Below are positions 4,112 through 60,322 of a stretch of DNA of 64,000 nt, one piece after another. Both the position numbers and the translations under genes were made by a program. The stretch is taken from NCBI GenBank assembly GCA_944391495.1, contig CALXTU010000006.1, positions 5,174-69,173 of the forward strand. The letters are read 5' to 3'. The notes under the pieces were generated by a model, which was not told where the DNA came from, did no database searches, and saw only the letters and a program-made list of their open reading frames with translations. This DNA comes from an uncultured Alphaproteobacteria bacterium (GTDB lineage Bacteria > Pseudomonadota > Alphaproteobacteria > RF32 > CAG-239). How positions within the stretch are numbered: the first letter of the stretch is position 1; every line of letters starts with the position of its first letter.

Positions 4112-5274
4112 TGAATTTTAATTTCCATGTTCCGGTTAATTTGTTTTTCGGCCGCGGAGAGCTCAACAATCTGCACAAACGTCCGCTTCCGGGAAAAAAA
4201 GCGCTGGTGGTTATTTCCAACGGTAAATCGGCGCGCGCCAACGGTTATCTTGACCGGCTTTATGAGCAGTTGGACAAGGCCGGCGTGGCATATGCCCTGT
4301 TTGACAAAGTAGAGCCCAACCCGCTCAAATCAACCATTATGGCCGGCGCGCAGGCTGCCCGGGAAAACGGCTGCGATTTTGTTGTTGCGCTCGGCGGCGG
4401 CAGCGTGATGGACGCCGGCAAGGCCATCGCCGGGATGGCGGTTAACGACGGCGACCTGTGGGATTATATGCCCTGGGGTACCGGCAAGGCCAAAGAAAAA
4501 CAGCACAAAGACCTGCCGCTGGTCTGTATTTCGACAACCGCCGGCACCGGCTCGGAAATTGACACCGGCGCGGTCATCACCAATCCCGAGACCAACGAAA
4601 AGACCGCTTATTTCGGCGAATTTCCCGCTTTGTCCATTGTTGATCCGGAGCTGATGGCCAGTGTTCCGCCCCGGCAGACGGCGTATCAGGGTTTTGACGC
4701 CCTCTTCCACTCAACCGAGGCCTATATTGCCTCCAGCGCCAATCTGATGAGCGATATGTTTGCCCGTGCGGCAATCGGAAATGTCGGCAAATATCTGGCA
4801 CGCGCGGTTAAAGACGGCAATGACGAAGAAGCCCGCGAGGGTATGGCTTTTGCCAACTCAATGTCCGGTTTTGTTATGTGTGTCGGCACCTGCACCAGCG
4901 AACATTCGCTGGAACACGCCCTGTCGGCCTATCATCAGGAACTGCCGCACGGCGCCGGACTGATTATGATATCCAAGGCCTATTACAACCATATGATTAA
5001 AGCCGGCGTTCGCGGTGAAAAATTTGTCGATATGGCGCGTTTTCTGGGTATGAAAGACGCCAAAGAGCCGGCCGATTTTCTCAAGGCACTGGACAAACTG
5101 CAGCGCGACTGCGGTGTTGACGAGCTGAAAATGTCAGACTACGGCATCAAGCCGGAAGAATTTGCCGGCATGGCCGCCAATGCCAAAGACTGCATGGCGC
5201 TTTTGTTTGAGTTTGATCCGGCGCCGCTCGGTAATGAAGACTGCGTCGCCATTTATCAGGCATCTTACAAATAA
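4111..5274 (+). CDS. iron-containing (group III) alcohol dehydrogenase
   Basis: 'ALGGGSVMDAGKAIA' glycine motif and His-rich metal site 'HSLEHALSAYH..PHG'. The ATG overlaps the upstream stop (TAATG). Confidence 0.85.
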   Translation: MNFNFHVPVNLFFGRGELNNLHKRPLPGKKALVVISNGKSARANGYLDRLYEQLDKAGVAYALFDKVEPNPLKSTIMAGAQAARENGCDFVVALGGGSVMDAGKAIAGMAVNDGDLWDYMPWGTGKAKEKQHKDLPLVCISTTAGTGSEIDTGAVITNPETNEKTAYFGEFPALSIVDPELMASVPPRQTAYQGFDALFHSTEAYIASSANLMSDMFARAAIGNVGKYLARAVKDGNDEEAREGMAFANSMSGFVMCVGTCTSEHSLEHALSAYHQELPHGAGLIMISKAYYNHMIKAGVRGEKFVDMARFLGMKDAKEPADFLKALDKLQRDCGVDELKMSDYGIKPEEFAGMAANAKDCMALLFEFDPAPLGNEDCVAIYQASYK

Positions 5275-5286
5275 GGGGGAAACAAA

Positions 5287-5757
5287 ATGAAAAAATTACT
5301 GACAACGGCTGCTGCCGCTTTGGTTTTAATCTCTTTTAACACAGGAGCTCAGGAAATGAAAAAAGCAGAAATCGACACGATATTCGGACAAGGCGAACCC
5401 AATCCCTACGGCGAGTTTTTTACCGGCCAGACCTATTTGACGCGCTTGAGCGCCAACGACGAAGTTTGGAATTCATCTATTGCCAACGTTACCTTTGAAC
5501 CGGGCGCCCGCACCAACTGGCACAAACATTCCGGCGGGCAAATCCTGCTGGTTTTGGGCGGCGAAGGACGTTATCAGGAACGCGGCAAAGAAATCCGGAT
5601 TTTGCATAAGGGTGATGTGGTTCGTATTCCGCTTGATATTGAACATTGGCACGGCGCGGCTCCGGATTCATGGTTTACGCATATCTCTATTGAAACCAAC
5701 CTGCCCGGTAATCAGACAACCTGGCTGGAGCCGGTAAATGATGCCGAATATAAATAA
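5287..5757 (+). CDS. secreted cupin-domain protein
   Basis: Signal peptide 'MKKLLTTAAAALVLISFNTGAQE'. Cupin motifs 'TNWHKHSGGQILLVLGGEG' and 'IEHWHGA'. Confidence 0.75.
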   Translation: MKKLLTTAAAALVLISFNTGAQEMKKAEIDTIFGQGEPNPYGEFFTGQTYLTRLSANDEVWNSSIANVTFEPGARTNWHKHSGGQILLVLGGEGRYQERGKEIRILHKGDVVRIPLDIEHWHGAAPDSWFTHISIETNLPGNQTTWLEPVNDAEYK

Positions 5758-6532
5758 AATCATAGCGACGGCGGTTGTTGTTTTACTGGCGGCCGCCGCC
5801 GGTTTTTACATCGGAAAAACAGAGGAAAACAAAATGGATAACTGGCAAAAAAATGATCCGGAAATGGCGGCGTTGTGGGATAATTTCATCACCAACGACG
5901 TTTTGCCGCACGGCAGTCTGGATTCCAGGACGCGTCATCTGGCACAACTGGCGGCGGCCGTTGCCGCACAGGGACACGGCGAGTACAAACGTCTGCTGAA
6001 CGAGGCTTTGGACGACGGCATTACCCCGGTTGAAGCCAAAGAGGTTGTTTATCAGACCGTGCCTTATGCCGGCATAGCCAAGGCCTATGACTTTATTGCC
6101 GCCACCAACGAGGTTTTGCAACAACGCGGCATCAGTCTGCCGCTTGACGGCCAGGCAACCGTTACACCGGCTGACCGTCTTGAAAAAGGCATTGCCGCTC
6201 AAAGCGCCATTTTCGGCACCGAGGCCATTGCCGCCATGCGCGCCAATGCCCCGCAGGAGCTGAAACATATTCAGGATTATTTGTCGGCCAACTGCTTCGG
6301 CGACTATTACACCCGCGGCGGTCTGGATATTAAAACCCGCGAGCTGCTGACGTTTGTCATTCTGGTATCCATGGGCGGTGCCGAACCGCAGGCCAAAGCA
6401 CATGCCGCCGCCAATATCGCCTTCGGCAACGGCCGGGAAAAACTCTTGGATACGGTTACGCAGATTCTGCCGCTTATCGGGTATCCGCGCAGCCTGAACG
6501 CCATTGCGGTGATTAACGAAGTGAGCAAATAA
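5738..6532 (+). CDS. carboxymuconolactone decarboxylase (CMD/AhpD-like) family protein
   Basis: Two CMD-like repeats ('TRHLAQLAAAVAAQG', 'KTRELLTFVILVSMGG'). N-terminal TM/signal-anchor segment. The start is uncertain (5738 or the internal ATG of 'MDNWQ'). Confidence 0.7.
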   Translation: MMPNINKIIATAVVVLLAAAAGFYIGKTEENKMDNWQKNDPEMAALWDNFITNDVLPHGSLDSRTRHLAQLAAAVAAQGHGEYKRLLNEALDDGITPVEAKEVVYQTVPYAGIAKAYDFIAATNEVLQQRGISLPLDGQATVTPADRLEKGIAAQSAIFGTEAIAAMRANAPQELKHIQDYLSANCFGDYYTRGGLDIKTRELLTFVILVSMGGAEPQAKAHAAANIAFGNGREKLLDTVTQILPLIGYPRSLNAIAVINEVSK

Positions 6533-6543
6533 AGGAGAAAATC

Positions 6544-7083
6544 ATGAGCAAAAAAATTCTGGTTTTGGCGGCAAGTTTCCGCAAACACGGCAACTCCGAC
6601 ACTTTGTGCGACGAGTTTATCCGCGGCGCCGTTGAGGCCGGTCATGATGTTGAAAAAATTTATATCAATGACAAAAAAATAAACTACTGCCGCGGCTGCG
6701 GCGTATGCAACCGGACACATCAGTGCGTGCAAAAAGACGATATGGCCGAGATTCTGGACAAGATGATTAAGGCCGACGTGATTGTCATGGCAACGCCGGT
6801 TTATTTCTATACCATGAACGGCCAGATGAAGACGTTAATCGACCGCACCGTGCCGCGGTATACCGAAATCAGCAACAAAGATTTCTACTTTATTGTCGCG
6901 GCGGCCGATGACAACCACGCCAATATGGAAAAAACGCTGGAGGGCTTCCGCGGCTTTACCGAGGATTGTCTGGACGGCGCCAAAGAAAAAGGCATTGTTT
7001 ACGGAACCGGCGCCTGGAATATCGGTGACATTAAAGGAAGCCCGGCCATGAACGAGGCTTATCTGATGGGCAAAAACGCCTGA
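6544..7083 (+). CDS. flavodoxin-like NAD(P)H-dependent FMN reductase / iron-sulfur flavoprotein
   Basis: 'KILVLAASFRKHGNSDTL' FMN-binding N-terminus and a 'CRGCGVC' cysteine cluster. Confidence 0.75.
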   Translation: MSKKILVLAASFRKHGNSDTLCDEFIRGAVEAGHDVEKIYINDKKINYCRGCGVCNRTHQCVQKDDMAEILDKMIKADVIVMATPVYFYTMNGQMKTLIDRTVPRYTEISNKDFYFIVAAADDNHANMEKTLEGFRGFTEDCLDGAKEKGIVYGTGAWNIGDIKGSPAMNEAYLMGKNA

Positions 7084-10075: not shown

Positions 10076-10528
10076 TTATTCTCCTTTGCAGCCGGTGAAT
10101 GATTTTGCCTGATCCCGCGCCAGTTTGTCAACCCGTTCGTTTTCCGGGTGACCGTTGTGCCCTTTAACCCATACCCATTTAATCGTATGTTTTTCAAGCT
10201 CCGAATCGAGAGCCTGCCATAAATCGATATTCTTGACCGGTGATTTTTTGTTGGCGGTGCGCCAGCCGTTGTTTTTCCAGTTCGGAAGCCAGGACTGCAC
10301 GCCGTCCATCACATAGCGGCTGTCGGTATGCAACGTCACCCGGCAGGGCTTTTTTAGGGCGCGCAGAGCCTCTATGGCCGCGGTCAGCTCCATGCGGTTG
10401 TTGGTGGTTTCCGCCGCACCGCCCGAGAGTTCTTTTTCAACCCCGGCGCAACGCAGAATCACGCCCCATCCCCCTGCTCCGGGATTGCCGGAACAGGCGC
10501 CGTCGGTAAATATCTCAACTTCTGGCAT
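10076..10528 (-). CDS. rnhA: ribonuclease HI
   Basis: '[22 protein letters not shown]', '[15 protein letters not shown]', 'LHTDSRYV' and '[15 protein letters not shown]' are the canonical DEDD-H RNase H motifs. Confidence 0.95.
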
Positions 10529-11595
10529 TAAAACTCTCCGCGGAAATAGTCGTTGAAAAATTCGTTCATAATCATATTGTAGTCCTCATCACCGCGAATA
10601 ACTTTGGCCACAAAAGACCGCAGCTTGTTTTTGGGAATATAGATGCGAAAATCTTTCGGCATGGCCATATTGGCGCCGATAACGCCCTCAAGCTGAAAAT
10701 CATCTTCAATAAACGGCGACAAAACAATCTCCACATTGCAAAACTTGATAGCGCCGCGCGGCGGCAGGCGGAGTTCCGGACGGGTAATGATGTTCAGCTG
10801 CCCTTCAATACCGGCGATAACTTCCATCTGATTGTAGTTTGAAAAACGAACTTTGTTGTATTCGCCGCCGTCGCTGACGACCTCGGCCGACAAAAACATC
10901 TCACGGGCAATCACATTGGAAATATTGGCGCCCTGCAGTTCAAACGAAACTTTGACATACTGTTCCGGCGGGTTGTCGATACTGTTGGGATAAAGCATAT
11001 CTTCGTCCTGATTTTCCAAAGCCTCGATTTTTTTGCCGGCCACCTTAAGCTCAATATTGGGCTGCGGGTAACGGCCGAACATACCGGCAATCACGGCATA
11101 AGGCGCCGGAACGTTGTTGGAACCTGAACGGATGTAAATGGCCGAATTTCCGGTAGTCATCAGAGGAGAAACATCGCTTTTCGGAATATATGTTGCCACA
11201 AAACCGTCGCCGTTTTCGTCAACGCTGATTATATGATTGCGCACTTTGTTGTGGCTGGGAATGGTGCAGCCGGAGATGGCGTTTTCCAGCCAGCTTAAAA
11301 AGCGATAGACGTTTTTGACTTTTACTTTGGCCTTGGCGACATCGCCGATTTCGCCGTCGCGGGAACACTCAACGCCCCAGATGACAACTCCTCCTTCGGA
11401 ATTGCCGAAACCGGATATCGCTTTGGACAGGTTTTTACGGTCATCGCGGTGCAGCGTGTTAAAATTTTTGCCGTCGGAAGCGGCCTGCTTAAAATCAATG
11501 AACAATTCTTCACTCTGGCGGTTGACGATAAAGTCATCTATGGCTTCTTCGCCAAAATAAACCAATTTTTGAAAAATATCTTCGGCACGCGACAT
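10528..11595 (-). CDS. AlbA_2 / Schlafen-like putative nucleic-acid-binding domain protein with an uncharacterised C-terminal half
   Basis: N-terminus '[10 protein letters not shown]...[31 protein letters not shown]' matches the AlbA_2 signature (E..lEfK ... AfaNt.GG.l.iGv.d.g.i.G). The stop overlaps the rnhA start (TAATG at 10526-10530). Confidence 0.6.
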
Positions 11596-12953: not shown

Positions 12954-14033
12954 TTAAACCGATTTGACAGCCGTTTTGACCGCCCTTATTGCCGATCTGA
13001 CAGCCGTTTCCATGCAGCAGGGATAATTTTGCATCGTCCAGTCGCCGGCTATAAACACGTTCGGATAAGACGTCAGGGCATTGCGCGGCCGGCGGAGATT
13101 GTTGCCTTCATCCTGGCGGATAGTAGCGTTTTTACAGCAAAAGGCCTTATACGGCGGCATAAACGCGGAGTTGACGCCCCGGATTTTATCAATTTCCTGC
13201 CAGACCTTCATTGCCAGACCGGACAAATTATTTTCCTGGGCATGATAATCCGAAATTACCGCTGATAACAAACCGTTTCCGGCAAAAAGCCAGTCGACCG
13301 TGCCGCCGGTAACACCGAGAAGCGATGCGCCGCCGGGCAGATATATCCGCTGCGAAGTCTGATATATTATATTGACGATTTGATTATGTTCAAGAGGAAT
13401 AATATCCAATACTTTGCGGCAGCTCAGATTATCAAGCGCCACAATAACCTTATCACGAGAACCGACCTCCGCCTGCCCTGTTGAAAATTCAAGCTGCGCC
13501 GCCATTCCGAACTGGGCGGCGATTTTATTCAGGCGGCAGTTTAAATGCACTTCGTCGGCATAGCCGGCAAGCATATTGATGATTCTCTGGCTTAAATCCT
13601 GCCCGGAAAACCAAACCTTGCGGACGGAAGGCGTCCAGGGAAAAGTCTGCCTCAAGATGTTCCGTTTTATGGGCGAGGCTATTTCTTCCGGTGCCGTGTT
13701 GCAAAAACTTTTTAAAATATGTCCCCGGTTTGCAAAAGCCGAAGTGCTTAGACCGCCGCCGGACATATCCAAAAACGGCACCTTGGCAATCCATTCGTTT
13801 TTTTTGACAAAAGCCGCCATGAACCGATTGGCACTAATAATGGCATGAACGGCATTATCCAGCCGAATACCCAGCCCGGCATCATCATAAGAATAGGCCC
13901 GGCCGCCGAGGCGCTCGCCGGCCTCGTAAATAACCGAACGAATTCCGGGGTATCGGCGTTTGAGATACCAGGCAGCGGCCAGACCGGCAATACCGCCGCC
14001 GACGATATGATATGTTTCCGGAAGCGATGTCAA
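12954..14033 (-). CDS. hpnE: FAD-dependent amine-oxidase-family protein, HpnE-like hydroxysqualene dehydroxylase
   Basis: Dinucleotide fold 'HIVGGGIAGLAAAWYL' and C-terminal 'FIAGDW...METAVRSA'. It sits directly downstream of hpnC and hpnD. It seems short for the family (my recollection of typical HpnE length, unchecked). Confidence 0.6.
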   Translation of the reverse strand: MTSLPETYHIVGGGIAGLAAAWYLKRRYPGIRSVIYEAGERLGGRAYSYDDAGLGIRLDNAVHAIISANRFMAAFVKKNEWIAKVPFLDMSGGGLSTSAFANRGHILKSFCNTAPEEIASPIKRNILRQTFPWTPSVRKVWFSGQDLSQRIINMLAGYADEVHLNCRLNKIAAQFGMAAQLEFSTGQAEVGSRDKVIVALDNLSCRKVLDIIPLEHNQIVNIIYQTSQRIYLPGGASLLGVTGGTVDWLFAGNGLLSAVISDYHAQENNLSGLAMKVWQEIDKIRGVNSAFMPPYKAFCCKNATIRQDEGNNLRRPRNALTSYPNVFIAGDWTMQNYPCCMETAVRSAIRAVKTAVKSV

Positions 14034-14038
14034 AAGGA

Positions 14039-14875
14039 TTATCTCCCGCTGAAAGCTTTTAAAATCAAAAATATTTTTGACAACCGGCCGATTTGCGGTT
14101 TGGGGGAAATAACCTCCCAGCCGCGGTTTTGCATGATGTCAAAATATCTTTTATAGATATAAGCTATCGCCCTGATATTGCGAGCAATCTTTTTATCAAG
14201 TTTTTTTATGGCCGCAAAGGCATCTGCATAATTCTTTTCCGCCATCTTGGCAAGTTCTTCCCGGGCAACGGCCAGATTTTTATCAACGATTACCGTCATC
14301 GGATCCGTCGCAACGATGTCGGCTTTCTGCAAAAATTCCCGCGGAATGTACAGGCGTCCGGCAACCGCATCTTCGCGAACATCTCGCAATATATTGGTAA
14401 TCTGCATGGCCATGCCGAGAGAATTTGACAATTCTTTTATTAACGTTTCATTCCTGCAGCCCAAAATACGCAACGACAAACTGCCCGGCGCACAGGCAAC
14501 GCCCCGGCAATAACGCTCAAATTCCGGCAGCGACGGCGCTCGAAGCGGATTGGGCAAATCCATGGATATACTGTCCAACAGGCTGACGATTTCCTGTTTG
14601 GGCAGATTAAACCGCATACAGTTTTTGTAAATATTACGACCGACGTCCGACGCCGGAACTTTTTTGTCATAGATATTGTCGATTTCCCGCCGCCAGGCGT
14701 CTAAAAGCTCCATTTTGTGCGACAGCGGTTCCGGACCGTCCACGATATCGTCAATATGGCGGCAGAAAGCATACAGGGTATAGATGGCGCGGCGCTCTTT
14801 GGTCGGCAGGATATGCATTCCCCAAAAGAACGACGAACCGGATTTTTTGACTATTTTTTTAATTTGTTTGTTCAT
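14039..14875 (-). CDS. hpnD: presqualene diphosphate synthase (squalene/phytoene synthase family)
   Basis: 'SSFFWGMHILPTKERRAIYTLYAFCRHIDDIVD' and the second Asp-rich region 'NILRDVREDA..GRLYIP'. Confidence 0.7.
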   Translation of the reverse strand: MNKQIKKIVKKSGSSFFWGMHILPTKERRAIYTLYAFCRHIDDIVDGPEPLSHKMELLDAWRREIDNIYDKKVPASDVGRNIYKNCMRFNLPKQEIVSLLDSISMDLPNPLRAPSLPEFERYCRGVACAPGSLSLRILGCRNETLIKELSNSLGMAMQITNILRDVREDAVAGRLYIPREFLQKADIVATDPMTVIVDKNLAVAREELAKMAEKNYADAFAAIKKLDKKIARNIRAIAYIYKRYFDIMQNRGWEVISPKPQIGRLSKIFLILKAFSGR

Positions 14876-15714
14876 AAGACACGTCCTTGTCCCTCAGGCC
14901 TGTTTCTAAGGGCTTGAATCATTCCCCGGCAAAATGCCTTGAGCCTGTCCGTCATATTCGGCCGCGGCGGATTCTGCAAAAAGTCAGTTCTTTTGTATTT
15001 TTGTAACACGGAATTGGTTAAGGAAAGAATAACGCAGATATTAAAACGCAGACGGAAATTGCGAATCAGTGCCGGCAGCAGCGCCGCTTCTTTAAGCATG
15101 GCTCCAGTTCTCGACAGTATTTCGTTCAGCAGTTCACGGACGGCAGACGACGTATAATTCAGCCCGAAATCAGACTGGCGGACGCCGTATTTTTGCATCA
15201 TATCCTGCGGAATATAGCAACGGCCGAGCCGGCTCAAATCCTGTTTGATATCCCCCAAATGATTAACCAGCTGCAAAACAACGCACAACTGCTCGGCCGG
15301 TAAAATCGCCGACGGAGCTTCATCGTGCACGGCCAGTATAAAACGCCCGACCGGCGCCGCCGAATAACGGCAATAATCCATAAGCTCTTCCCAGATGCGA
15401 ACCGGACGACCGGCGGCATCGCGCTCAAAAGCGGTCAACAGGTCCAAAAACAGCGAAGCATCAAGATTTTCGGCAACAAAAAGCTTTTCGAGACGGCGGA
15501 TTCCGGGCAGGTCATCAGCGGCAGACGGCTGCAAAAAAGCCTCCCGGACGGCCGCAAGGCGCCGGAGTTTTTCATCTTGCTGCAAACAGGGATCATCGGC
15601 AATATCGTCAGCCTGCCGCGCCGCTTGATAATATGCGTCCACCAGCGGTCGTAAAGATGCCGGCACCAGTTGTTTGACGGGAAATTGTTCGTCTTTGGCG
15701 GTTTTATGCTTCAT
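14872..15714 (-). CDS. hpnC: hydroxysqualene synthase (squalene synthase HpnC)
   Basis: 'EQFPVKQLVPASLRPLVDAYYQAARQADDIADD' and 'LGDIKQDLSRLGRCYIP'. It overlaps hpnD by 4 nt. Confidence 0.7.
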   Translation of the reverse strand: MKHKTAKDEQFPVKQLVPASLRPLVDAYYQAARQADDIADDPCLQQDEKLRRLAAVREAFLQPSAADDLPGIRRLEKLFVAENLDASLFLDLLTAFERDAAGRPVRIWEELMDYCRYSAAPVGRFILAVHDEAPSAILPAEQLCVVLQLVNHLGDIKQDLSRLGRCYIPQDMMQKYGVRQSDFGLNYTSSAVRELLNEILSRTGAMLKEAALLPALIRNFRLRFNICVILSLTNSVLQKYKRTDFLQNPPRPNMTDRLKAFCRGMIQALRNRPEGQGRVL

Positions 15715-17224: not shown

Positions 17225-18361
17225 ATGAAATTTCGACTGGGGGCAATTATTTTTGCGGCAGGGTGTATTTTCGCCCTGTCTGCCTATGCCAGCGAAGATC
17301 CCGAAACATACCCTTTTCCCGATGATTTCAGTTTTGACGACCTGCCGGAAATAGAGCCGCTGCCGCCGCTTGACGGAGAAACACCGCCGCTGCTTGCGGA
17401 TACTGCCGCCGCGGAAGCCCCGACCGAAGCGACTCCGGAAGATGCGGAAACACCCCTTCTGAGGCCGGTAACTGAGACATCTTCGGGCCAGAGTACGGCT
17501 CAAACAGGCGAGCAGGATATTTTTCTTCCCGGAACAGACGGAACGGCCAATGAAGATGCTTTTGCAACCGATAAAAGCCTTACCGAAACCCTGAAGGAAG
17601 CTGACGCACAACCGGAATCAGGTCCGCTGGGCGGGACCTGGGTTGAAAAACTGACGACCAGCAATCCCTTGTCGCTGTTGACCGGCAACGAACCTCAAAA
17701 AGCTGACGCAAAACTTGAAGAAATGGTGCAAAAAGCCCGCGGTAATGAAGAAACCGGCCGTTCAAACGCCTCGGTGTTTGATATTGCCGGGGTGATGCTG
17801 CGCATGAGTCTCGACCAAACGGAGCGCACTTTGCAAAACCGCGGTTTTCGCAAGGTTAATGCCCGGTTTCAAATTCCGAACTTTATCAAATGGCGCAATG
17901 AAGAAAGTTGCCGCAACGAAGGCGTTGTCGGTTATGAACGCCTTGAAGCCTGCGTTATTGACAAGGCCAAAAAAGACGGACACCAGTATCTGCAGTACCT
18001 GAAATATGTCAAATACGACACCAAAGAGGAAATGGAAGTTTATTTTACCAGCAACTTTACCGAAAACAAGGTTTATAAAATCGTTTACCGCTCCCGAATC
18101 GCCTCAATTACGGGTAATTCGCCCAAGGCCGTTTACATCCGCAACATTAAAATTTATGACTTCTGGAAACGAATCAACCAAAAATACGGTCAGCCGGACA
18201 ACAAAACGAACGTCACCTGGGGAATGGGCGGCGACAAGCCCTATCTTAAGGCCGACAGCGGTTATCTGCTGCTGGAAGACCCGATGTTCCGGGAGCTTGA
18301 TTATACCCGGATGTCGCGTGAAGACCAGCGGTTTATCAACAGTGATTTTTATACTTTTTAA
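17225..18361 (+). CDS. secreted hypothetical protein with an acidic Pro/Glu/Thr-rich N-terminal region
   Basis: Signal peptide 'MKFRLGAIIFAAGCIFALSAYA'. About 150 aa of low-complexity acidic sequence, then a globular Lys/Tyr-rich C-terminal half. No family recognised. Confidence 0.55.
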   Translation: MKFRLGAIIFAAGCIFALSAYASEDPETYPFPDDFSFDDLPEIEPLPPLDGETPPLLADTAAAEAPTEATPEDAETPLLRPVTETSSGQSTAQTGEQDIFLPGTDGTANEDAFATDKSLTETLKEADAQPESGPLGGTWVEKLTTSNPLSLLTGNEPQKADAKLEEMVQKARGNEETGRSNASVFDIAGVMLRMSLDQTERTLQNRGFRKVNARFQIPNFIKWRNEESCRNEGVVGYERLEACVIDKAKKDGHQYLQYLKYVKYDTKEEMEVYFTSNFTENKVYKIVYRSRIASITGNSPKAVYIRNIKIYDFWKRINQKYGQPDNKTNVTWGMGGDKPYLKADSGYLLLEDPMFRELDYTRMSREDQRFINSDFYTF

Positions 18362-18415
18362 ACATTGTTGCGGTAGAATGGAATTTGATTGTATAAAACA
18401 ACCGGGAAGAATCCA

Positions 18416-19012
18416 ATGACAAAAAACATTATTTCGGAACTGGTCTGCACCCGCCTCAGCCACGATATTGCCGGCAGCATAGGCGCTGTTGCCAACGCGG
18501 TTGAGCTGCTGGAGGAAGGCGATCTTGACTTTTTGGACGATATTAAATCCGTCTTGAAAACCAGTTCGCAGAATCTGGCCGCCCGGATGAAATTTTTTCG
18601 CATGGCGTTCGGACTGGACAACGCCTTGCTTGATGATGCCGCATTGGTGACGCAGACGGCGCAAAATTATCTGGCAACTCTGGGCAACAAGGACTATCCG
18701 ATATCTTTGTCGCTGCAGGTTTCTGCCGCAAGCGGGCGCAAAACGGCGCTTCTGATGATTATGGCGGCGGCCGATCTGCTTATCCGCGGGGGACGAATTA
18801 ACGTTTTTGAAAACGGCGGGCAGCTGGTGGCCGAGATTGCCGCCGACGGTAAAATTCCCGAAGAAAAATATGCCAAAATGCAGCATGCCGTAACCGGAGC
18901 GACTCCGGAAGATGCCGACGCCGCGTTTGTGCCGCTGTATGCTCTGGCTGAAAGCGGACACAAGCCTTGTTTTTACAGGTCTGAAAATATTATTCAACTG
19001 GTGACGGAGTAA
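18416..19012 (+). CDS. chpT: histidine phosphotransferase ChpT
   Basis: 'ELVCTRLSHDIAGSIGAVANAVELLEEG' matches the ChpT phospho-His helix (RLCHDL.sP.gAi.NglELL). ATG at 18416 follows GGGAAG; the track start at 18389 is TTG. Confidence 0.7.
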   Translation: MTKNIISELVCTRLSHDIAGSIGAVANAVELLEEGDLDFLDDIKSVLKTSSQNLAARMKFFRMAFGLDNALLDDAALVTQTAQNYLATLGNKDYPISLSLQVSAASGRKTALLMIMAAADLLIRGGRINVFENGGQLVAEIAADGKIPEEKYAKMQHAVTGATPEDADAAFVPLYALAESGHKPCFYRSENIIQLVTE

Positions 19013-19015
19013 CCA

Positions 19016-19396
19016 ATGCCCAACTGTCTTATTGCCGACGATTCAAAAATCATGCGGATGCTGCTGACCAAGATTATGGAAAATTTCGGTTATACGGTCA
19101 GCGAAGCCGAAGACGGTGAAGATGTTCTGGAACAATGCGGCCGGAATATGCCGGATCTTATCATCAGCGACTGGAATCTGCCGCTGATTGACGGTATTGA
19201 CGTTTTATACAAAATCCGTTCCGATAAAAAAGCGGTGCAGCCTGTATTTATGTTTTGCTCTTATATCAAAGACGCCGACATCATCCGCCAGGCGCTGGCC
19301 GGCGGTGCCGATGATTTCATCATGCGCCCTTTTGACGAGGATATTATTGCCTCGAAACTCAAAATCATAAAAGTTTTGCGGGGAGTACAACAATAA
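19016..19396 (+). CDS. single-domain response regulator (CheY-like receiver)
   Basis: 'LIADDSKIMRMLL', 'DLIISDWNLPLIDG' (phospho-acceptor Asp) and a conserved Lys in 'DFIMRPF'. Confidence 0.85.
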   Translation: MPNCLIADDSKIMRMLLTKIMENFGYTVSEAEDGEDVLEQCGRNMPDLIISDWNLPLIDGIDVLYKIRSDKKAVQPVFMFCSYIKDADIIRQALAGGADDFIMRPFDEDIIASKLKIIKVLRGVQQ

Positions 19397-20304
19397 TGCG
19401 GCGGCTTGATTTTGAATTTTTGTTGGATCTGCTCAAAGAAAATGCCGGCTGGGAATTTGACGAATCGCAGTACTTTATTATTGATAAAAAAATATCAAAC
19501 TTCATCCGCGAAAAAGGCTATGATTCGGTTGACGACCTGATTTTGGAGCTGAAAACCGGACGGCGGCCGCTTATTGCCCAGGTTGTTGAAGCCATGGCTT
19601 TTTCGGACACGGCTTTTTTCAGAGATTTTGACATTTTCTACCGGTTTCAGCATCTGCTGCTGCCGCTGTTGAAAGAAAAATGCCGAGCGGCCAAAAAACT
19701 CAATATCTGGAGTCTGGGCTGCTCGACCGGACAAGAGGCTTATTCCATTGCCATTGCCGTAAAGCGGGCCAACAAGATGTTTGCCGACTGGGAAATCAAC
19801 ATTCTGGGATCTGACTTATCATCACTGGCTATCAGTAAGGCTCAACACGGCAGCTATAATAATTTTGAAATCCAGATGGGGCTTAACGCCGCCACGATTT
19901 TGGAATTTTTTACCTACGACAACGAACAATGGACCATTCGCGAAGATATCCGGAAGATGATTGAATTCAGACGGTATAATATGCTGGAAGAAGCAATCGT
20001 CAAATCGAAATTTGAAGTCGTTTTTTGCCGCAACGTGCTGCGTTATTTTTCTGCCGAGCATCAAGACGCCATCTTGCGACGCATCAGCGAAAAACAGCCT
20101 CAGGGCGGTTATCTTTACCTCGGCAAAAACGAACATATTCCGGCGGTTGAAAAATATTACTATCGCCTTGATCAAAGCAGCGGCGCCTATATTGCCAAAG
20201 GAATCGGCAGCGCGCTTAACATTAACAGCGGCCGTCTGACCGATGAAATTCCCGAAGAGCCGGCAATGCCGAGTTTTGTACGGCCGAGCAGCCTGATCAG
20301 ATAA
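19396..20304 (+). CDS. cheR: chemotaxis protein methyltransferase
   Basis: 'TAFFRDFDIFYRFQHLLLP' and the SAM motif 'LNIWSLGCSTGQEAYSIAI'. The ATG overlaps the upstream stop. Confidence 0.85.
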   Translation: MRRLDFEFLLDLLKENAGWEFDESQYFIIDKKISNFIREKGYDSVDDLILELKTGRRPLIAQVVEAMAFSDTAFFRDFDIFYRFQHLLLPLLKEKCRAAKKLNIWSLGCSTGQEAYSIAIAVKRANKMFADWEINILGSDLSSLAISKAQHGSYNNFEIQMGLNAATILEFFTYDNEQWTIREDIRKMIEFRRYNMLEEAIVKSKFEVVFCRNVLRYFSAEHQDAILRRISEKQPQGGYLYLGKNEHIPAVEKYYYRLDQSSGAYIAKGIGSALNINSGRLTDEIPEEPAMPSFVRPSSLIR

Positions 20305-20323: not shown

Positions 20324-20357
20324 CAGACGGCAGATAATTTTCATTATCTGCCGTCTG
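20324..20357. terminator. strong hairpin between convergent cheR and Cys-rich gene A
   Basis: Perfect 15-bp stem 'cagacggcagataat'/'attatctgccgtctg' with a 4-nt loop. The flanking T-runs are weak. Confidence 0.6.
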
Positions 20358-20386: not shown

Positions 20387-21532
20387 CTACTTAGCCCATA
20401 ATGACAGCCAACCGTCCCAGCAACCGCCCTCGCAGGCAAAGTTATAATACTTTTTGTCGGTGCGGCAGCCGGAAGGCATACGGCAGACTATTTGTTGCGA
20501 ATTGTCTTCATGCTTCTGCACGGTATAGGTGTAATTAGTGCTATCGTCGGTTTTATATGTCGTCGAATTACTTGCACCCATATTCGCCAGTTTATATCCG
20601 TTTGAGGTATTACAACCGGTAACCTGGTAACAGGTATGTGTTCCGGCTGAAACACCGGTTGATACAAAATATGTGCTATCCGGCTCTGAAGATGAGCAGA
20701 AATAGCTATTGTTGCTCTGCGCACCGCTGAGACACCCGTTAACCTTACGACACGTATAACCGGAAGCTGAGTGCCGCTGGGTGCTGACATCAGCACAGAC
20801 AGGAATATCATTGCCGATGCAGTCACCCTCACCGCTGCAATCTCCGGTAAAACAATAGACCGTACTCTTACCTTCACCGATAAGAGATAACGTCGGCGTC
20901 GCTCTTGTTAAACATGAGAGATCTTCACCCGGTGCGGAAGTTTGGCACTCGGACGGCAGATCATATGAAACGACACAAGCCAAAGAACTTTCGGTAAACG
21001 GCGATTCGGTCTTATAGGTAATTCCATAAGTCGTCTCCTCGGTTGTACTTTTATAAACATGATAACCGTCGGCGCAAGTAAAGGAATCTTTCTTATAGCA
21101 TTTTACCTTGCTGTCCTCATCCTCATAGACCTCCGGGGTATTAAAATATGTACCGACATTCTTAACACTTGCCGTGCTGATATAGTCTTTGGCACAGGTG
21201 CAGGCCGTATATTTTGGGGTGCCGCCGATAGAACAGGCCTCGCCGCTGCCGGTGATTCCTTCACTGGCACAGGTATATTCATATTTGCTGTCGCAGTGAC
21301 AAGCGTAACATTGGGTACCGTCCATCAGGGTTTGTTGTTTGGTACAGATGGCATTAGCCTGGATACTGTCAAACCAACCGTAAGCTTTGCAAGTCTGATT
21401 AAATGCCTGTTTGCCGTCATCGGTTATTGTCATATTATATTCGTTAATAGGTGTTACTTTTGCCTGAGCCGAAGATATCGTCAAAATGCCCAGCAGCAAA
21501 AACATTCCCGTTTTTATTGATATTGCCGCCAT
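20387..21532 (-). CDS. cysteine-rich secreted protein, paralog A (no known family)
   Basis: Likely ATG at 21532 (RBS AAAGGA). Signal peptide 'MAAISIKTGMFLLLGILTISSAQA'. About 27 Cys and a repeated C-x-K-V-x-G-C-x-x-G motif. The N- and C-termini are shared with the 21741-22871 protein. Confidence 0.75.
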   Translation of the reverse strand: MAAISIKTGMFLLLGILTISSAQAKVTPINEYNMTITDDGKQAFNQTCKAYGWFDSIQANAICTKQQTLMDGTQCYACHCDSKYEYTCASEGITGSGEACSIGGTPKYTACTCAKDYISTASVKNVGTYFNTPEVYEDEDSKVKCYKKDSFTCADGYHVYKSTTEETTYGITYKTESPFTESSLACVVSYDLPSECQTSAPGEDLSCLTRATPTLSLIGEGKSTVYCFTGDCSGEGDCIGNDIPVCADVSTQRHSASGYTCRKVNGCLSGAQSNNSYFCSSSEPDSTYFVSTGVSAGTHTCYQVTGCNTSNGYKLANMGASNSTTYKTDDSTNYTYTVQKHEDNSQQIVCRMPSGCRTDKKYYNFACEGGCWDGWLSLWAK

Positions 21533-21564
21533 TGTCGTAATCCTTTCGTTTGTTACCCCGGAGT

Positions 21565-21589
21565 GTTGCAAAAAAGGTTCGTTTTTTTG
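21565..21589 (-). promoter_or_regulatory. conserved 5' leader hairpin element of paralog A
   Basis: The minus strand reads 'caaaaaaacgaaccttttttgcaac'. The same element lies upstream of paralog B. Its internal stem is caaaaaa/ttttttg. Confidence 0.4.
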
Positions 21590-21698
21590 TTACCATTAAT
21601 TTAATTATATCATCAAAATATTAAAAAAACAATAACTTTAGATATACCGCAATGTTCAAAGGATTTTTTCGACCGGTGTTGTGCTGTGTTTATCGCGG

Positions 21699-21724
21699 CA
21701 AAAAAACGAACCTTTTTTTGCAAC
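21699..21724 (+). promoter_or_regulatory. conserved 5' leader hairpin element of paralog B
   Basis: The plus strand reads 'caaaaaaacgaacctttttttgcaac', the mirror image of 21565-21589, about 17 nt upstream of the ATG at 21741. Confidence 0.4.
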
Positions 21725-21740
21725 GGCGGGAGAATTAAAG

Positions 21741-22871
21741 ATGCTGAAAACACGATATATTTTTGGAGCGGTTATGTTGTCATGCCTGATGACAATATCG
21801 GCTCAGGCAAAAGTAACACCTATTAACGAATATAATATGACAATAACCGATGATAAGCAACAGGCATTCAATCAGAGTTGTTCTGCTTACGGTTGGTTTG
21901 ACAGTATCCAGGCTAATGCTATCTGTACCCAGCAAACCCTGATGAACGGTGCCAAATGTTATGATTGTCATTGTGACAGCAAATATAAATATGCCTGTGC
22001 CAGTGAAGGAATCATCGGCAGCGGCGAGGCCTGTTCTATCGGCGGCACCAAAAAATATACTGCCTGCACCTGTGCCGAAGGCTATATCAAAGAGGCTGAG
22101 GTTACTAAAAATCTGACCTCCATCAGCTATCCGCAACCCTCGACAGGTGATGATAAAACCACGTGTTATAAAAAATCCGCCTTTGCTTGCAATGCGGGCT
22201 ATAACAAATTTACATCACATCCGGCCTCTCCTTATGTCACATACACCACGGAGTCGCCGTTCAGCGACAAATCATTGCAATGTGTCACCGATTATTCCAA
22301 TACCGGCGGCCGATACTTTAAAGCTGAAAACCGCCCGGCGAATACAGACTGTTTGGAAACGAGCAGTATCAGTCTGGACCTGTTGCCGTCTTCGATAGAT
22401 CTGTATTATTTCAATGGTAATTGTTCAAGCTCAACGGGATGCACCACCACCAAGAAAGATTGTGTATTGTATAATGATCAGACGGGAACAACCAATAAGG
22501 GCGGCAGTGTTACCTGCAATAAAATAAGCGGCTGCCAGTCGGGTCTTGTCGGCAGCTATATCTGCGGGATGACGGAGGCAGACAGCAATTATTTCACTTC
22601 CGAAAAGGTTACGGACGGAGATGCCATTTGTTATAAAGTCAGCGGCTGCAAGACCGGCAGCGGTTATGAACAGGCGTATATCGGAACATCGCCGGCCTCC
22701 GATTATACCACCAAATCGGGGAGCAATTATACCTACACCGTTAAAACACACACTTCCGGAAGCGCCAGTTTGGTTTGTCGTACACCTTCCGGCTGCAGCA
22801 CCGGTTATTACAACTTTGCCTGCGAGGGCGGTTGCTGGAACGGCTTGTTGTCTTTATGGATGCCGAGATAA
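21741..22871 (+). CDS. cysteine-rich secreted protein, paralog B (no known family)
   Basis: ATG at 21741 follows GGGAGA. Signal peptide 'MLKTRYIFGAVMLSCLMTISAQA'. The Cys scaffold and termini ('KVTPINEYNMTITDD...', '...YYNFACEGGCWNGLLSLW') match paralog A. Confidence 0.75.
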   Translation: MLKTRYIFGAVMLSCLMTISAQAKVTPINEYNMTITDDKQQAFNQSCSAYGWFDSIQANAICTQQTLMNGAKCYDCHCDSKYKYACASEGIIGSGEACSIGGTKKYTACTCAEGYIKEAEVTKNLTSISYPQPSTGDDKTTCYKKSAFACNAGYNKFTSHPASPYVTYTTESPFSDKSLQCVTDYSNTGGRYFKAENRPANTDCLETSSISLDLLPSSIDLYYFNGNCSSSTGCTTTKKDCVLYNDQTGTTNKGGSVTCNKISGCQSGLVGSYICGMTEADSNYFTSEKVTDGDAICYKVSGCKTGSGYEQAYIGTSPASDYTTKSGSNYTYTVKTHTSGSASLVCRTPSGCSTGYYNFACEGGCWNGLLSLWMPR

Positions 22872-22888: not shown

Positions 22889-22917
22889 AAAACCACGCAC
22901 CAAGTGCGTGGTTTTTT
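22889..22917. terminator. bidirectional rho-independent terminator
   Basis: 'aaaaccacgcac caag tgcgtggtttttt': a GC-containing stem with an A-run and a T-run, between convergent genes ending at 22871 and 22919. Confidence 0.8.
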
Positions 22918-22918
22918 G

Positions 22919-23416
22919 TTAAACAAAACAGGTCAGCCCCGCAGTGATCCGTTCAATATCATCTAAAGTTTCTGCCGGCGGCTTTGTAAAGTCCAAACAA
23001 AGCCCAGGCGAAATGTATCCGGCCGCGGTACGGCGGTCATACAGACAAAACGGCGTTGAAAACCAGTGCAGATATTCTATGCTGTCGTCAATATGCAAAT
23101 TGACGCGGCAGCGGCGGCAAAATTCGGCTTTGGCCATATTCCACAAATACTCGGCGACCTCAAAACCGCCGTCCGGTCGCTGTTCTACCTGCCCCAAGGC
23201 CTGATAATAATCGGCAACGGCAAACAGAAAATCATAGCTGATGTCAGCCGCCGCCAAATATTGTTTCACTTTTACCGCCGGACCACCGGTGATGATATAA
23301 ATCCGATGACCACACTCCGTTGCCAGCCGACAAAAAGCTGCAAAATATTCCGGTCTTTGATCGACAACGCCGTGATAGTCCAAACCGAGTTTCAGTTTTT
23401 GACTATTCATCGGCAC
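22919..23416 (-). CDS. small HAD-like hypothetical protein
   Basis: 'LGLDYHGVVD' degenerate HAD motif I and 'IYIITGG'. It overlaps the upstream AsmA-like gene by 14 nt. Confidence 0.45.
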   Translation of the reverse strand: MPMNSQKLKLGLDYHGVVDQRPEYFAAFCRLATECGHRIYIITGGPAVKVKQYLAAADISYDFLFAVADYYQALGQVEQRPDGGFEVAEYLWNMAKAEFCRRCRVNLHIDDSIEYLHWFSTPFCLYDRRTAAGYISPGLCLDFTKPPAETLDDIERITAGLTCFV

Positions 23417-57982: not shown

Positions 57983-58076
57983 GGTTGCTTTTATCTCCGC
58001 AATTAACTATATTTAAGATAATTTGATGTTATTATAAAGATTAATGGGTTAATTTTATTTTAAGGATAGTTGAAAA

Positions 58077-58442
58077 ATGGATAATCTCGGCAGTTATGCC
58101 CAAACCGAAGTCGCCGGCATGAGCGAAGCCGAGCTGGAGTCCCGTGCGCTTATAAAAACGGCTTCCGCATTGAACAAAGTTAAAGAAAACTGGCCGGAAG
58201 ACAAAGAGGAACTGCAGCAGGCTCTGGATAAAAACCGCCGGTTATGGAGTGTTTTGGCGGCTGCCATGCGTGAAGAAGACTGTCCGCAACCGGCTGAGGT
58301 GAAACAAAATATTTTGAATCTGGCCTCGTTTATTTTTCAACGCACTCTTGATGTTTCTGCCCATCCGGCGCCGGAAAAGCTGGATATTTTGATTAATATC
58401 AATATGAATATTGCCCGCGGTCTTTCTGGAAAGGCCGAATAG
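58077..58442 (+). CDS. flaF: flagellin synthesis regulator FlaF
   Basis: 'EAELESRALIKTASAL...QQALDKNRRLWSVLAAAM...PQPAEVKQNILNLASFIFQRTL' matches the FlaF pattern seen in alphaproteobacteria. Confidence 0.7.
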   Translation: MDNLGSYAQTEVAGMSEAELESRALIKTASALNKVKENWPEDKEELQQALDKNRRLWSVLAAAMREEDCPQPAEVKQNILNLASFIFQRTLDVSAHPAPEKLDILININMNIARGLSGKAE

Positions 58443-58446
58443 CCTC

Positions 58447-58704
58447 TTACAACCAAAGGCGGCTGCTGTCTTCGGTCTTAATTTTGGCTATTTCAAAGCG
58501 GTAAAGCGTCAGGTAATTTTCTTTATTCCACAAATGACGATGCCGCAGCAGAATTCCTTTGGGATAAGGTCCGTCGATTTTGTCTTTGCCTTGCATATCC
58601 GAAATATGCGGCCGGTTATTCTTTTTTATTCTGTCATACATTTCCGGCTTTCCTGTTTTTTTATTATATAAATACGAATGACGTTTTTCAAAGACAACAG
58701 TCAT
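58447..58704 (-). CDS. small basic hypothetical protein (85 aa)
   Basis: An ORF with no recognised motif. It is convergent with flaF and very Lys/Arg-rich. Its coding status is uncertain. Confidence 0.3.
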   Translation of the reverse strand: MTVVFEKRHSYLYNKKTGKPEMYDRIKKNNRPHISDMQGKDKIDGPYPKGILLRHRHLWNKENYLTLYRFEIAKIKTEDSSRLWL

Positions 58705-58771
58705 AAATTATTTTTTATGAAAAAAATGATTGACTAACGAAAATAAATATATTATCAATGCTTCATCTTAC

Positions 58772-58857
58772 GGGGGTATGGCGGAATTGGTAGACGCGCT
58801 AGACTCAAAATCTTGTGGCCTCTGGCCGTGTCAGTTCAAGTCTGACTACCCCTACCA
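58772..58857 (+). tRNA. tRNA-Leu (anticodon CAA), class II with long variable arm, CCA encoded
   Basis: Acceptor GGGGGTA/TACCCCT, D-arm 'GCGGAATTGGTAGACGC', anticodon loop 'CTCAAAA', variable arm 'GTGGCCTCTGGCCGTG' and T-arm 'GTCAG TTCAAGT CTGAC', ending in ACCA. Length 86 nt. There is one U-U mismatch in the anticodon stem. Confidence 0.9.
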
Positions 58858-58862
58858 GATTA

Positions 58863-58899
58863 AAAAGCCATGCAAATTATCAATTTGCATGGCTTTTTT
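58863..58899 (+). terminator. rho-independent terminator after tRNA-Leu
   Basis: 16-bp stem 'aaaagccatgcaaatt'/'aatttgcatggctttt' with a 4-nt loop, running into a T-run. Confidence 0.85.
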
Positions 58900-59092
58900 G
58901 TTTGATAACAGCAGACACCGTTCTTTTCCGCTAACTTCAAGCCGGCATATTACAAGCCAATCCCTTTATATTTTTATATTCAAAAACAATCCTCTATCCC
59001 TCATCTTTGGATAAGTTGTTAAAAATAGGTTTATTTTTATGAAAATTCTGCTATAACCTAAGGTAAATTTTAAATAACCGGGCTTTATCTTT

Positions 59093-60322
59093 ATGAAATA
59101 TAAAGGAAAATTAAAACTTAAAAAGGCATATTCCCCGCATTATGCCGAGAAAAAACCGTTCTTTTCCGAAAAAGAGATTATTTTTCGGAGTGCCGGCAAA
59201 GCGATGGTTTTTAAATTTTCATCACGGATGCAGGTTTTTATTTTGGCGGTATTTTTTCTGATTGCCGGCTGGAGCAGCTATTCTTATTATATGTATAACA
59301 AATCGGGCAGGATTATATCTAACAAAGATCAGGAGCTGGTTGAAACCCGCGATGCCTATGTCGACCTGATGAGCGATTTTGTGGCGATTCAGAAAAATAT
59401 TGACGAGGTTCTCACCTCAATGAATGACGATAAGAGCAAAGAAATCGACAAATACAAACGTCAGGCAATGGTGGTGGAAGATAAAATCAAACAAATTACA
59501 TCCGAAAAGTCATGGGCCGACGGCAAAACACTCAATGATAAAGTCAATATTAACGAAGTTATGCTGCAGCGGGATCTGGCTGCGGCCGAGCGTGATGCAC
59601 TGAAAGAACAGCTGAAAGAGCTTGAGATTGCCGTACAAAACATCAAAAAAGCCGAAATGGAGGTCTTTGACAAGGTTGAGGCCATTGCCTCCAAAGAAAT
59701 CGGCAAGATTAAAAGCGCTTTTGCCAAGGTAAACAGCTCACTCAGGCGTCAGGGATTGTATTTTAACCCGCTGGCCAACTCTAAAAAACGCGCCGCACAG
59801 GGTGGAACCTTCATACCTGATTCGGCGCTGGAATTGCAAGATGAAATGATTATCCAAAAAATCAGCAGTATCTATAAATCGGTTGATGATTTGGAATATT
59901 ACCGCGAAGTCAGCCAGTATGTTCCCATCGGTAAGCCGGTCTGGAGCTATTGGGTAAGCTCAAAATTCGGCACCAGAAGCGACCCGTTCAACAAACGTGC
60001 GGCTACTCACAAGGGTATTGATCTGGCCTCCAGACAAGGCAATAAAATTAAAGTAATGGCTAAAGGAAAAGTGGTAAAAACCCAACATTCCAACAAAGGA
60101 TACGGCAATCTGGTCGTGGTGGACCACGGCAACGGCTTCACGACCAAATATGCGCATATGCATAAAATTTATGTTAAAAACGGCGATTATCTGGAGATTA
60201 ATGATGCCGTCGGAGAGGTCGGAAACACCGGCCGTTCAACCGGACCGCATCTGCATTATGAAATTTTATACCAGGGGCGTCCGGTAGACCCGATGCCATT
60301 TATGCAGGCTAAAATTTCATAA
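59093..60322 (+). CDS. membrane-anchored coiled-coil M23 (LytM-type) peptidase
   Basis: N-terminal TM and a long coiled coil. M23 motifs 'HKGIDLAS', 'VVVDHGNGFTTKYAHM' and 'GNTGRSTGPHLHYEI' give an intact HxxxD/HxH metal site. Confidence 0.9.
   Translation: MKYKGKLKLKKAYSPHYAEKKPFFSEKEIIFRSAGKAMVFKFSSRMQVFILAVFFLIAGWSSYSYYMYNKSGRIISNKDQELVETRDAYVDLMSDFVAIQKNIDEVLTSMNDDKSKEIDKYKRQAMVVEDKIKQITSEKSWADGKTLNDKVNINEVMLQRDLAAAERDALKEQLKELEIAVQNIKKAEMEVFDKVEAIASKEIGKIKSAFAKVNSSLRRQGLYFNPLANSKKRAAQGGTFIPDSALELQDEMIIQKISSIYKSVDDLEYYREVSQYVPIGKPVWSYWVSSKFGTRSDPFNKRAATHKGIDLASRQGNKIKVMAKGKVVKTQHSNKGYGNLVVVDHGNGFTTKYAHMHKIYVKNGDYLEINDAVGEVGNTGRSTGPHLHYEILYQGRPVDPMPFMQAKIS

Follow-up and report, generated by a model that had tools for sequence, protein, structure and literature searches.

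A 64,000-nt stretch of DNA from an uncultured alphaproteobacterium (GTDB lineage Alphaproteobacteria; RF32; CAG-239; GenBank assembly GCA_944391495.1, contig CALXTU010000006.1, positions 5,174 to 69,173), referred to here as the window, carries two divergent genes for cysteine-rich exported proteins, and these genes, together with the inverted repeats within and between them, are the subject of this analysis. Gene A (20387-21532, minus strand; stop codon 20387-20389) encodes a 381-aa precursor with a 357-aa mature form containing 27 Cys, and gene B (21741-22871, plus strand) a 376-aa precursor with a 353-aa mature form containing 25 Cys. The two genes are 208 bp apart, and their ATGs, at 21532 (A) and 21741 (B), are preceded by the ribosome-binding sites AAAGGA and GGGAG, respectively. 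A protein identical to the gene A product (P0001) is found on other contigs. The signal peptides are MAAISIKTGMFLLLGILTISSAQA in A and MLKTRYIFGAVMLSCLMTISAQA in B; both are of the Sec type, end in (S)AQA and are followed by KVTPINEYNMTITDD. Each has an N-terminal basic residue, a hydrophobic core and an A-x-A motif and is without a lipobox Cys, and the cleavage contexts read from the sequences (...LTISSAQA|KVTP and ...LMTISAQA|KVTP) are kept across the family.

The first-pass annotation of this DNA, made from the letters alone, had described the two ORFs (open reading frames) as a divergent pair of secreted paralogs with conserved ends and a diverged core, and that description stands. The proteins share 51% identity over 375 aa (BLASTP, E 2e-115), both carry a signal peptide, and the first 95 mature residues, estimated as about five-sixths identical, are identical at 79 positions (83%). 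Identity falls to 36% in the core and rises again over the last ~22 residues (16/23, ~70%). The recurring Cys motif, C-x-x-[VIMPL]-[STN]-G-C, is present in three colinear copies in each protein. Of the 27 Cys in A and the 25 in B, proposed as a colinear scaffold of about 27, 24 fall in shared aligned columns.

Three nested pairs of inverted repeats, an inner, a middle and an outer one, are present at the locus. In the inner pair, site L (21568-21589; GCAAAAAA-GGTTCG-TTTTTTTG) is an inverted copy of site R (21698-21721; GCAAAAAAA-CGAACC-TTTTTTTGC); the repeat has a perfect 20-nt core and is near-perfect over ~25 nt (21565-21589 and 21699-21724), and the chance expectation of such a 22-nt site in the 64-kb window is 0.01. 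The inner sites are dyads in their own right, GCAAAAAAA-GGTTCG-TTTTTTTGC, with inverted arms of 8-9 nt made up of A/T runs and an asymmetric 6-nt core, a 9-6-9 layout that looks like a recombinase core site. In the window and in 1.45 Mb of sequence from related genomes, sites of this type are confined to this locus. The family peptide patterns and the promoter or site sequence had no match when scanned against GTDB genomes, JGI metagenomes and IMG/VR, and Rfam has no family at the locus.

Between the inner sites lies an AT-rich centre of 108 bp (21590-21697). It contains a putative promoter on the minus strand (21604-21632), facing gene A, with a -35 element TTGTTT (21632-21627), a 17-nt spacer and an extended -10 element TGaTATAAT (21612-21604), from which transcription would read through site L into gene A. 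No comparable element directed towards gene B was found in the centre, and site R is separated from the gene B ATG by only 19 nt. The promoter-bearing half of the centre is identical at 58 of 59 positions between the lineage of the window and a sister lineage described below, while the other half is identical at 29 of 48.

The middle and outer repeats lie within the coding regions. The arms of the middle repeat, whose near-identical DNA had been noticed at first reading, are the 5′ coding part of A (21178-21483; mature residues ~1-100) and that of B (21787-22089), and they match over ~310 nt at 87-90% (160 nt at 90% and 149 nt at 87%), far beyond chance. The arms of the outer repeat are the 3′ coding ends of A (20396-20488) and B (22773-22859), with a 54-nt part (20396-20449 and 22806-22859) at 89% and a further 31 nt at 84%. 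The intergenic invertible element and the re-sorting of cores by the conserved ends, both seen here, had been left out of the first-pass annotation.

The locus is probably a DNA-inversion switch for the either/or expression of two variant, disulfide-rich proteins that are secreted or displayed at the surface. According to this model, the single outward promoter would lie on the 108-bp element between the two inverted 9-6-9 sites. In the state of the window, A would be on, read through site L, and B, which has no recognisable promoter, would be silent; a flip of the element would reverse the two states. The ~300-nt 5′ repeats, through homologous recombination or gene conversion, would give the other core the promoter and signal-peptide module, the ~54-nt 3′ repeats would by the same processes invert the whole locus, and the middle and outer levels together would re-sort the pairing of cores and modules. 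Direct support for the model comes from the repeats and their inversion in all three ways among related strains, from the homogenised 5′ ends and the fast amino-acid evolution, and from the loss of the copy that the promoter does not face. The model further presumes that the promoter is active, that switching, at whatever rate, takes place within populations, that the recombinase is encoded elsewhere, and that the proteins are exposed at the surface under immune or phage pressure.

Loci from related strains were fetched by exact protein look-up and compared by blastn; all comparisons of orientation are between metagenome samples. Proteins are described by a code that gives the type of the signal peptide, the core and the C-terminal end in that order. 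The locus occurs in at least five rearranged forms, with inversions at all three repeat levels. The window arrangement is found in two other samples (L001 and L002) at 100% identity across the locus, so the inverted pair itself is not a product of misassembly. In two further loci (L005 and L089) 2.4 kb are inverted between the outer repeats while the flanks stay in place, giving the proteins A/A/B and B/B/A; the breakpoints in L005 fall in the outer repeats. In L004 and L007 the cores have changed sides (A/B/A and B/A/B) around a promoter and signal-peptide module of unaltered orientation, which equals a middle plus an outer inversion. A fourth arrangement, in L088, has an A/B/B protein beside the gene for a 165-aa protein, and a deletion variant (L003, L092 and L093) resembles L004 and carries, in addition, one common deletion. 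The B-type core is thus joined to the A-type promoter and signal-peptide module beside the CheR gene in five loci (L004, L007, L003, L092 and L093) and on the other side of the locus in L088. The combinations seen are A/A/A, B/B/B, A/A/B, B/B/A, A/B/A, B/A/B and A/B/B.

Assembly across repeats could in principle have produced such variants where a metagenome sample holds several strains, as many of the related contigs are short (1.5-3.6 kb) with a coverage of 2-4x and the two arms have exact stretches of up to 56 nt in common. The window arrangement, however, recurs base for base in the two other samples, and the alternatives recur in independent cohorts (L004 with L007; L005 with L089; L003 with L092 and L093; L091 with L006). 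The inner sites, at 20-25 nt, are below typical assembler k-mers and too short to mislead an assembler, which makes a mis-assembled inner flip unlikely, and two of the variants are on long contigs (L003 on 42 kb, L006 on 24 kb). We consider it very improbable that assembly accounts for the forms observed.

The inversion of the centre is seen in the sister lineage (L006, L090 and L091), in which the flanks are colinear at 96-97% identity and the centre is reversed. When L090 and L091 are compared, the flank on one side is colinear and 97% identical over 481 nt, while the 165-nt stretch that bears the centre aligns only in reverse (96%). The centre of L006 has the orientation of L091, and that of the window has the orientation of L090; accordingly the promoter-like element faces the gene with the A-type leader in L090 and the gene with the B-type leader in L091 and L006. 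The core of the inner site is specific to the strain and alike in both sites of a strain (GCTCG in L091, TGTTCG in L090, GGTTCG in the window), except in L006, where the two sites differ at 2 positions.

The size, the AT-richness and the terminal inverted repeats of the centre resemble those of a miniature inverted-repeat transposable element (MITE), and a non-autonomous mobile element of this kind with an outward promoter could have reached its two orientations by independent insertion. This is hardly to be believed for three reasons: neither the site nor the promoter has a copy elsewhere in the 64-kb window, and searches of related genomes (1.45 Mb) and of the viral and JGI metagenome collections returned none either; the boundaries and flanks are exactly alike in both orientations; and the repeats extend into the duplicated 5′ leaders of both genes.

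Damaged loci agree with an inversion switch in which the promoter faces one gene at a time. The deletion common to L003, L092 and L093 takes nearly all of the second gene together with site R and the half of the centre that lacks the promoter, and leaves exactly the promoter half and the gene that the promoter faces. In L006 the promoter-like element faces an intact gene for a 581-aa protein, and the opposite copy is truncated and frameshifted. Wherever one copy is truncated or deleted (L006; L003, L092 and L093), the survivor is the gene faced by the promoter. The identical deletion junction of L003, L092 and L093 spans two sub-lineages of the core, with 97.3% and 99.8% identity to L007, which indicates that the allele was recombined between strains or arose more than once.

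The middle and outer levels of rearrangement bear the marks of general recombination. The points at which A-type sequence changes to B-type in the 5′ and 3′ coding repeats vary among strains, and within nucleotides ~117-345 tracts of A type and B type are intermingled in a mosaic across strains, which points to homologous recombination or gene conversion and not to a fixed site. Between the two genes, synonymous divergence (dS) is saturated in the core but only 0.04-0.5 over the first ~120 codons. The low 5′ dS and the mosaic indicate that the ends are kept alike by recombination or gene conversion and serve as substrates for inversion; the conserved termini around a variable core that had been reported are real, but they are not mainly a sign of protein constraint. 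The inner flip, at dyad sites of 20-25 nt, fits site-specific recombination better. Rearrangement is fast relative to point substitution, as nearly identical cores are found in different arrangements: the B-type core of L088 is 99.2-99.5% identical to those of L089 and L005, and the core of the deletion variant L093 is 99.7-99.8% identical to those of the two-gene variants L004 and L007.

These data can also be read without a programmed switch. A and B would then be ordinary inverted paralogs in concerted evolution, both expressed, with rare, unprogrammed homologous recombination events fixed strain by strain, and the inner sites would be operators for a dimeric regulator, one in each 5′ leader. 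The palindromic, operator-like form of the inner sites agrees with this, as do the variable breakpoints in the coding repeats, which are what RecA-type recombination predicts, the restriction of the inner flip to one lineage, the orientation differences, known only between samples, and the lack of a recombinase among the scanned ORFs of the window. A clean flip of 108 bp at repeats of 20-25 nt is, however, atypical of RecA-dependent exchange, and cores that are 99.5% identical in different arrangements imply a rearrangement that is fast compared with point mutation. This reading also sits poorly with a centre of which only one half is conserved, namely the half with a one-directional extended -10 element, and with the finding that the lost copy in L006 and in L003, L092 and L093 is the one that the promoter does not face. 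On balance the unprogrammed alternative seems unlikely, though it deserves to be taken seriously.

The switch would act on proteins that change quickly. Between strains with the same core, the A and B proteins have a non-synonymous divergence (dN) of 0.10-0.125 and a dN/dS of 0.3-0.65, compared with a dN of 0.006-0.027 and a dN/dS of 0.04-0.09 for CheR, TrmFO and the 378-aa protein encoded nearby, so that their amino-acid evolution is 5-15 times faster than that of the neighbours. Positive selection at A and B is suggested by these values. The proposal that these are diversifying proteins accordingly holds as regards the fast evolution, whereas dN/dS stays below 1 and does not demonstrate positive selection; their description as diversifying surface or secreted proteins is plausible because of the invertible element and the recombining conserved ends. 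The signal peptides, the disulfide-rich modules, the rapid divergence and the control by a switch together argue for an exported, probably surface-exposed molecule that may be under pressure from host antibodies or phages.

Several observations weigh against the switch. The promoter-like element was read by eye, and a consensus scan lists none in the centre, as the -35 element matches the consensus at only 3/6 positions. No recombinase domain was found in ~30 ORFs of the 64-kb window scanned against Pfam, nor a recombinase gene on the related 24-kb and 42-kb contigs, so the recombinase would need to be supplied by another part of the genome; Mpi in Bacteroides is a precedent for such a distant recombinase. 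Only the sister lineage provides examples of the inner flip, and the contigs of the window lineage all have one orientation relative to the signal peptides. With orientation compared only between samples, the events could be rare and fixed instead of programmed. Given the exact runs shared by the arms, low-coverage contigs recombined at the middle repeat could be assembly chimeras, though the arrangements recur in independent cohorts. A supposed pseudogene in L007 depends on a single 1-nt deletion, dN/dS taken over the whole is less than 1, the few windows that exceed this value having ~1 synonymous difference, and the surface location of the proteins is a prediction. A fuller version of the switch is put forward more tentatively, as a proposition with roughly even prospects that lean slightly against it: a three-tier nested inversion system that combines site-specific inversion of a promoter with two levels of homologous recombination between repeats in the coding ends, and which would provide mutually exclusive, re-assortable expression of an exported protein family with a new fold in uncultured RF32-like gut Alphaproteobacteria. 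It would be driven by a recombinase from elsewhere in the genome with a new 9-6-9 recognition site (GCAAAAAAA-GGTTCG-TTTTTTTGC).

The first-pass annotation could name no family for the pair, and neither could any search. Pfam gave no family at E ≤ 10 for the A and B proteins, models of Cys-rich repeats included, and no significant profile match to EGF, furin-like, variant-specific surface protein (VSP) or other Cys-repeat families; NCBIfam gave noise only; and there was no match in PHROGs or, by sequence or by profile, in the PDB. Similarity to S-layer proteins did not rise above noise in Pfam, the PDB or Foldseek. A word-indexed search of 5.8 billion proteins returned 14 relatives, and an exhaustive hidden Markov model search of 1.84 billion cluster representatives returned 49 clusters at E ≤ 0.001, all of them unnamed and the former all from metagenomes. 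The members of the family have KVTP[IV]xEY directly after the signal peptide. They have 14 invariant Cys and a beta-hairpin module, '...YF.S....G...C[YR]KV.GC..GY', that varies in copy number, with three copies in A and B and many more in the family member P0026. The motif GYY..C..GCW.G.LS.W is C-terminal in the short members, whereas the long ones continue beyond it with more Cys-rich sequence. The longer members have no informative extra domains, save one 773-aa protein (P0024), in which a thioredoxin (E 3.5e-19) and rubredoxin-like domains follow the Cys-rich family domain; this joining may be genuine and bear on disulfide chemistry, or it may reflect two genes merged in the gene call.

A first AlphaFold model based on 13 sequences was poor, with a predicted local distance difference test score (pLDDT) of 60. 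With 43 family sequences a confident all-beta model was obtained (pLDDT 83.8, predicted template-modelling score 0.58). A Foldseek search of this model against the PDB and BFVD gave noise only (best E 0.5-0.65, template-modelling score ≤ 0.15). Model quality is low for the conserved KVTP peptide at the N-terminus and for the W-rich motif at the C-terminus, which would fit with contact of these parts to a partner. The family appears to be previously undescribed, and its predicted fold is without a structural neighbour.

The locus is framed by hairpins, in agreement with the terminators that had been called on both sides. A perfect 15-bp hairpin (20324-20357) lies between the convergent CheR gene and gene A and is a likely bidirectional terminator. 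After gene B, the hairpin AAAA-CCACGCAC-caa-GTGCGTGG-TTTTTT (22889-22917), with a GC stem, an A-run before it and a T-run after it, is likely to be a bidirectional intrinsic terminator. The neighbouring genes encode TrmFO, preceded upstream by two SQS_PSY genes, the 378-aa protein without a family, a ChpT-like protein, a CheY-like receiver and CheR, the 165-aa protein without a family, and a 1080-aa YhdP/AsmA-like protein, RF-2, PBP1A, AmiC and flagellar proteins.

The best matches to TrmFO among 185,579 GTDB species genomes have 66-80% identity, and the species of the window is not among the representatives. The matching metagenome-assembled genomes, which include 'Proteobacteria bacterium CAG:495' and 'uncultured Azospirillum sp.', come from human (Hadza, BRZ, Nepal), roe deer, yak, sheep and mouse hosts and all represent uncultured gut Alphaproteobacteria. 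In six related species homologues of the family occupy the same position between CheR and YhdP, as single, tandem or reversed genes, which indicates that the family is resident there and is not borne by an island or a phage; IMG/VR contains no family members and no inner site, and there is likewise no PHROG match. The more distant syntenic homologues (L009, L011, L012, L013, L016 and L019) are single or tandem genes without comparable repeats, which suggests that the switch is specific to this lineage. L019 has two tandem family genes in the slot (4178-6667) and L013 one gene in the opposite orientation (5392-6669). The CheR-YhdP slot is a long-standing hot spot for this Cys-rich family.

Other features of the window are recorded here. 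The ChpT-like phosphotransferase ORF, the 126-aa CheY-like receiver and CheR (18389-20304) adjoin the locus in every related contig; the ChpT-like ORF has no Pfam match on the related contigs. The 165-aa gene (22919-23416, minus strand) is conserved beside the locus and belongs to no Pfam family; it matches phrog_13623 (unknown function; E 1.5e-14) and has, by eye, a HAD-like N-terminus (LDYHGVV). The 378-aa protein (17225-18361, plus strand) has a signal peptide, an acidic N-terminal region rich in Pro, Glu and Thr and no Pfam or PHROG match, and its gene is kept beside TrmFO in all related contigs. On the minus strand at 12954-15714, a flavin amine-oxidase-type gene stands in line with two genes of the squalene/phytoene synthase family, a layout that we take to resemble HpnC/HpnD/HpnE squalene synthesis and that is presumably noteworthy for a lineage associated with gut anaerobes. 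A 355-aa ORF (10528-11595, minus strand) contains a Schlafen AlbA_2 domain (E 4e-9), which is frequent in defence-related or regulatory ATPase-like proteins. The stretch 58001-60000 has a GC content of 0.40-0.41, compared with ~0.49 for the window, and holds the only tRNA gene, Leu-CAA (58772-58857); it lies ahead of a gene for an M23 peptidase and of flagellar hook genes and is a possible island boundary.

Gut Alphaproteobacteria near CAG:495 and 'uncultured Azospirillum' are common in human and ruminant gut metagenomes, those of non-industrialised cohorts such as the Hadza included. To our knowledge there is no cultured model, and almost nothing is known of their dealings with host or phage. 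The switch would give a testable marker of phase variation for this clade, with an orientation that can be counted in existing reads. The A and B proteins are candidates for a surface antigen or phage receptor, the putative new short recombination site offers a route to identifying its recombinase, and the family, though small, has a confidently predicted fold without a structural neighbour. More generally, paralogs with conserved ends around a variable core can mark recombination handles rather than protein constraint.

One close likeness is to the sap locus of Campylobacter fetus, in which paralogs with conserved 5′ regions are said to be oppositely oriented around an intervening segment with a single promoter, and in which inversion via the 5′ regions reportedly places the promoter before another variable cassette. 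Here, too, the paralogs are oppositely oriented, the ~300-nt 5′ repeats flank the promoter segment, and in L004, L007, L003 and L088 the other cassette has acquired the promoter and 5′ module, with variable breakpoints. In contrast to sap, the A and B proteins are without sequence or fold relationship to the Sap S-layer proteins, there are two cassettes only, and the invertible middle is ~600 bp and not kilobases. The locus also has a second, putative inner switch, small and built on short dyad sites, and a further repeat pair at the 3′ ends, and its host is an uncultured gut alphaproteobacterium.

The inner element resembles the invertons, which according to reviews and surveys control surface structures and are abundant in gut bacteria. 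Like fimS of E. coli, hin/H2 of Salmonella, the polysaccharide promoters of Bacteroides and cwpV of C. difficile, it is a short segment bounded by short inverted repeats and is found in both orientations against fixed flanks, here between samples. Invertons carry a promoter in one direction, for which the element facing gene A is the candidate here. Unlike classical invertons, which turn one operon ON or OFF, it lies between divergent paralogs and would toggle A against B. It also has no adjacent invertase, and no dedicated recombinase is encoded in the scanned ORFs; the site GCAAAAAAA-GGTTCG-TTTTTTTGC matches none of the known recombinase sites that we could name.

In the vpma, vsp and vsa loci of Mycoplasma, shufflon-like, site-specific inversions of the Xer type attach one promoter and leader to alternative variable surface-protein genes, and rearrangements by homologous recombination that are independent of the recombinase occur as well (PMC5634654; PMC11868660). 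The combination of site-specific and homologous events is shared with the locus described here, whereas the Mycoplasma proteins are lipoproteins, their genes form larger arrays and the recombinase is encoded in the locus, none of which applies here. The resemblance of the A and B proteins to Giardia VSPs, ciliate surface antigens and proteins with EGF or furin-like repeats is one of analogy only and lies in a richness in Cys, Ser, Thr and Gly and in short, disulfide-framed repeat modules whose number varies within the family. The mutually exclusive expression of such surface proteins would have its parallel in the proposed switch. The repeat here differs from those of VSPs and of EGF or furin-like proteins, being C-x-x-[VI]-x-G-C in predicted beta-hairpins with no match to a Pfam Cys-repeat family. 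As a switch, the locus would be a variant of known inversion systems, and the protein family that it would control is itself undescribed.

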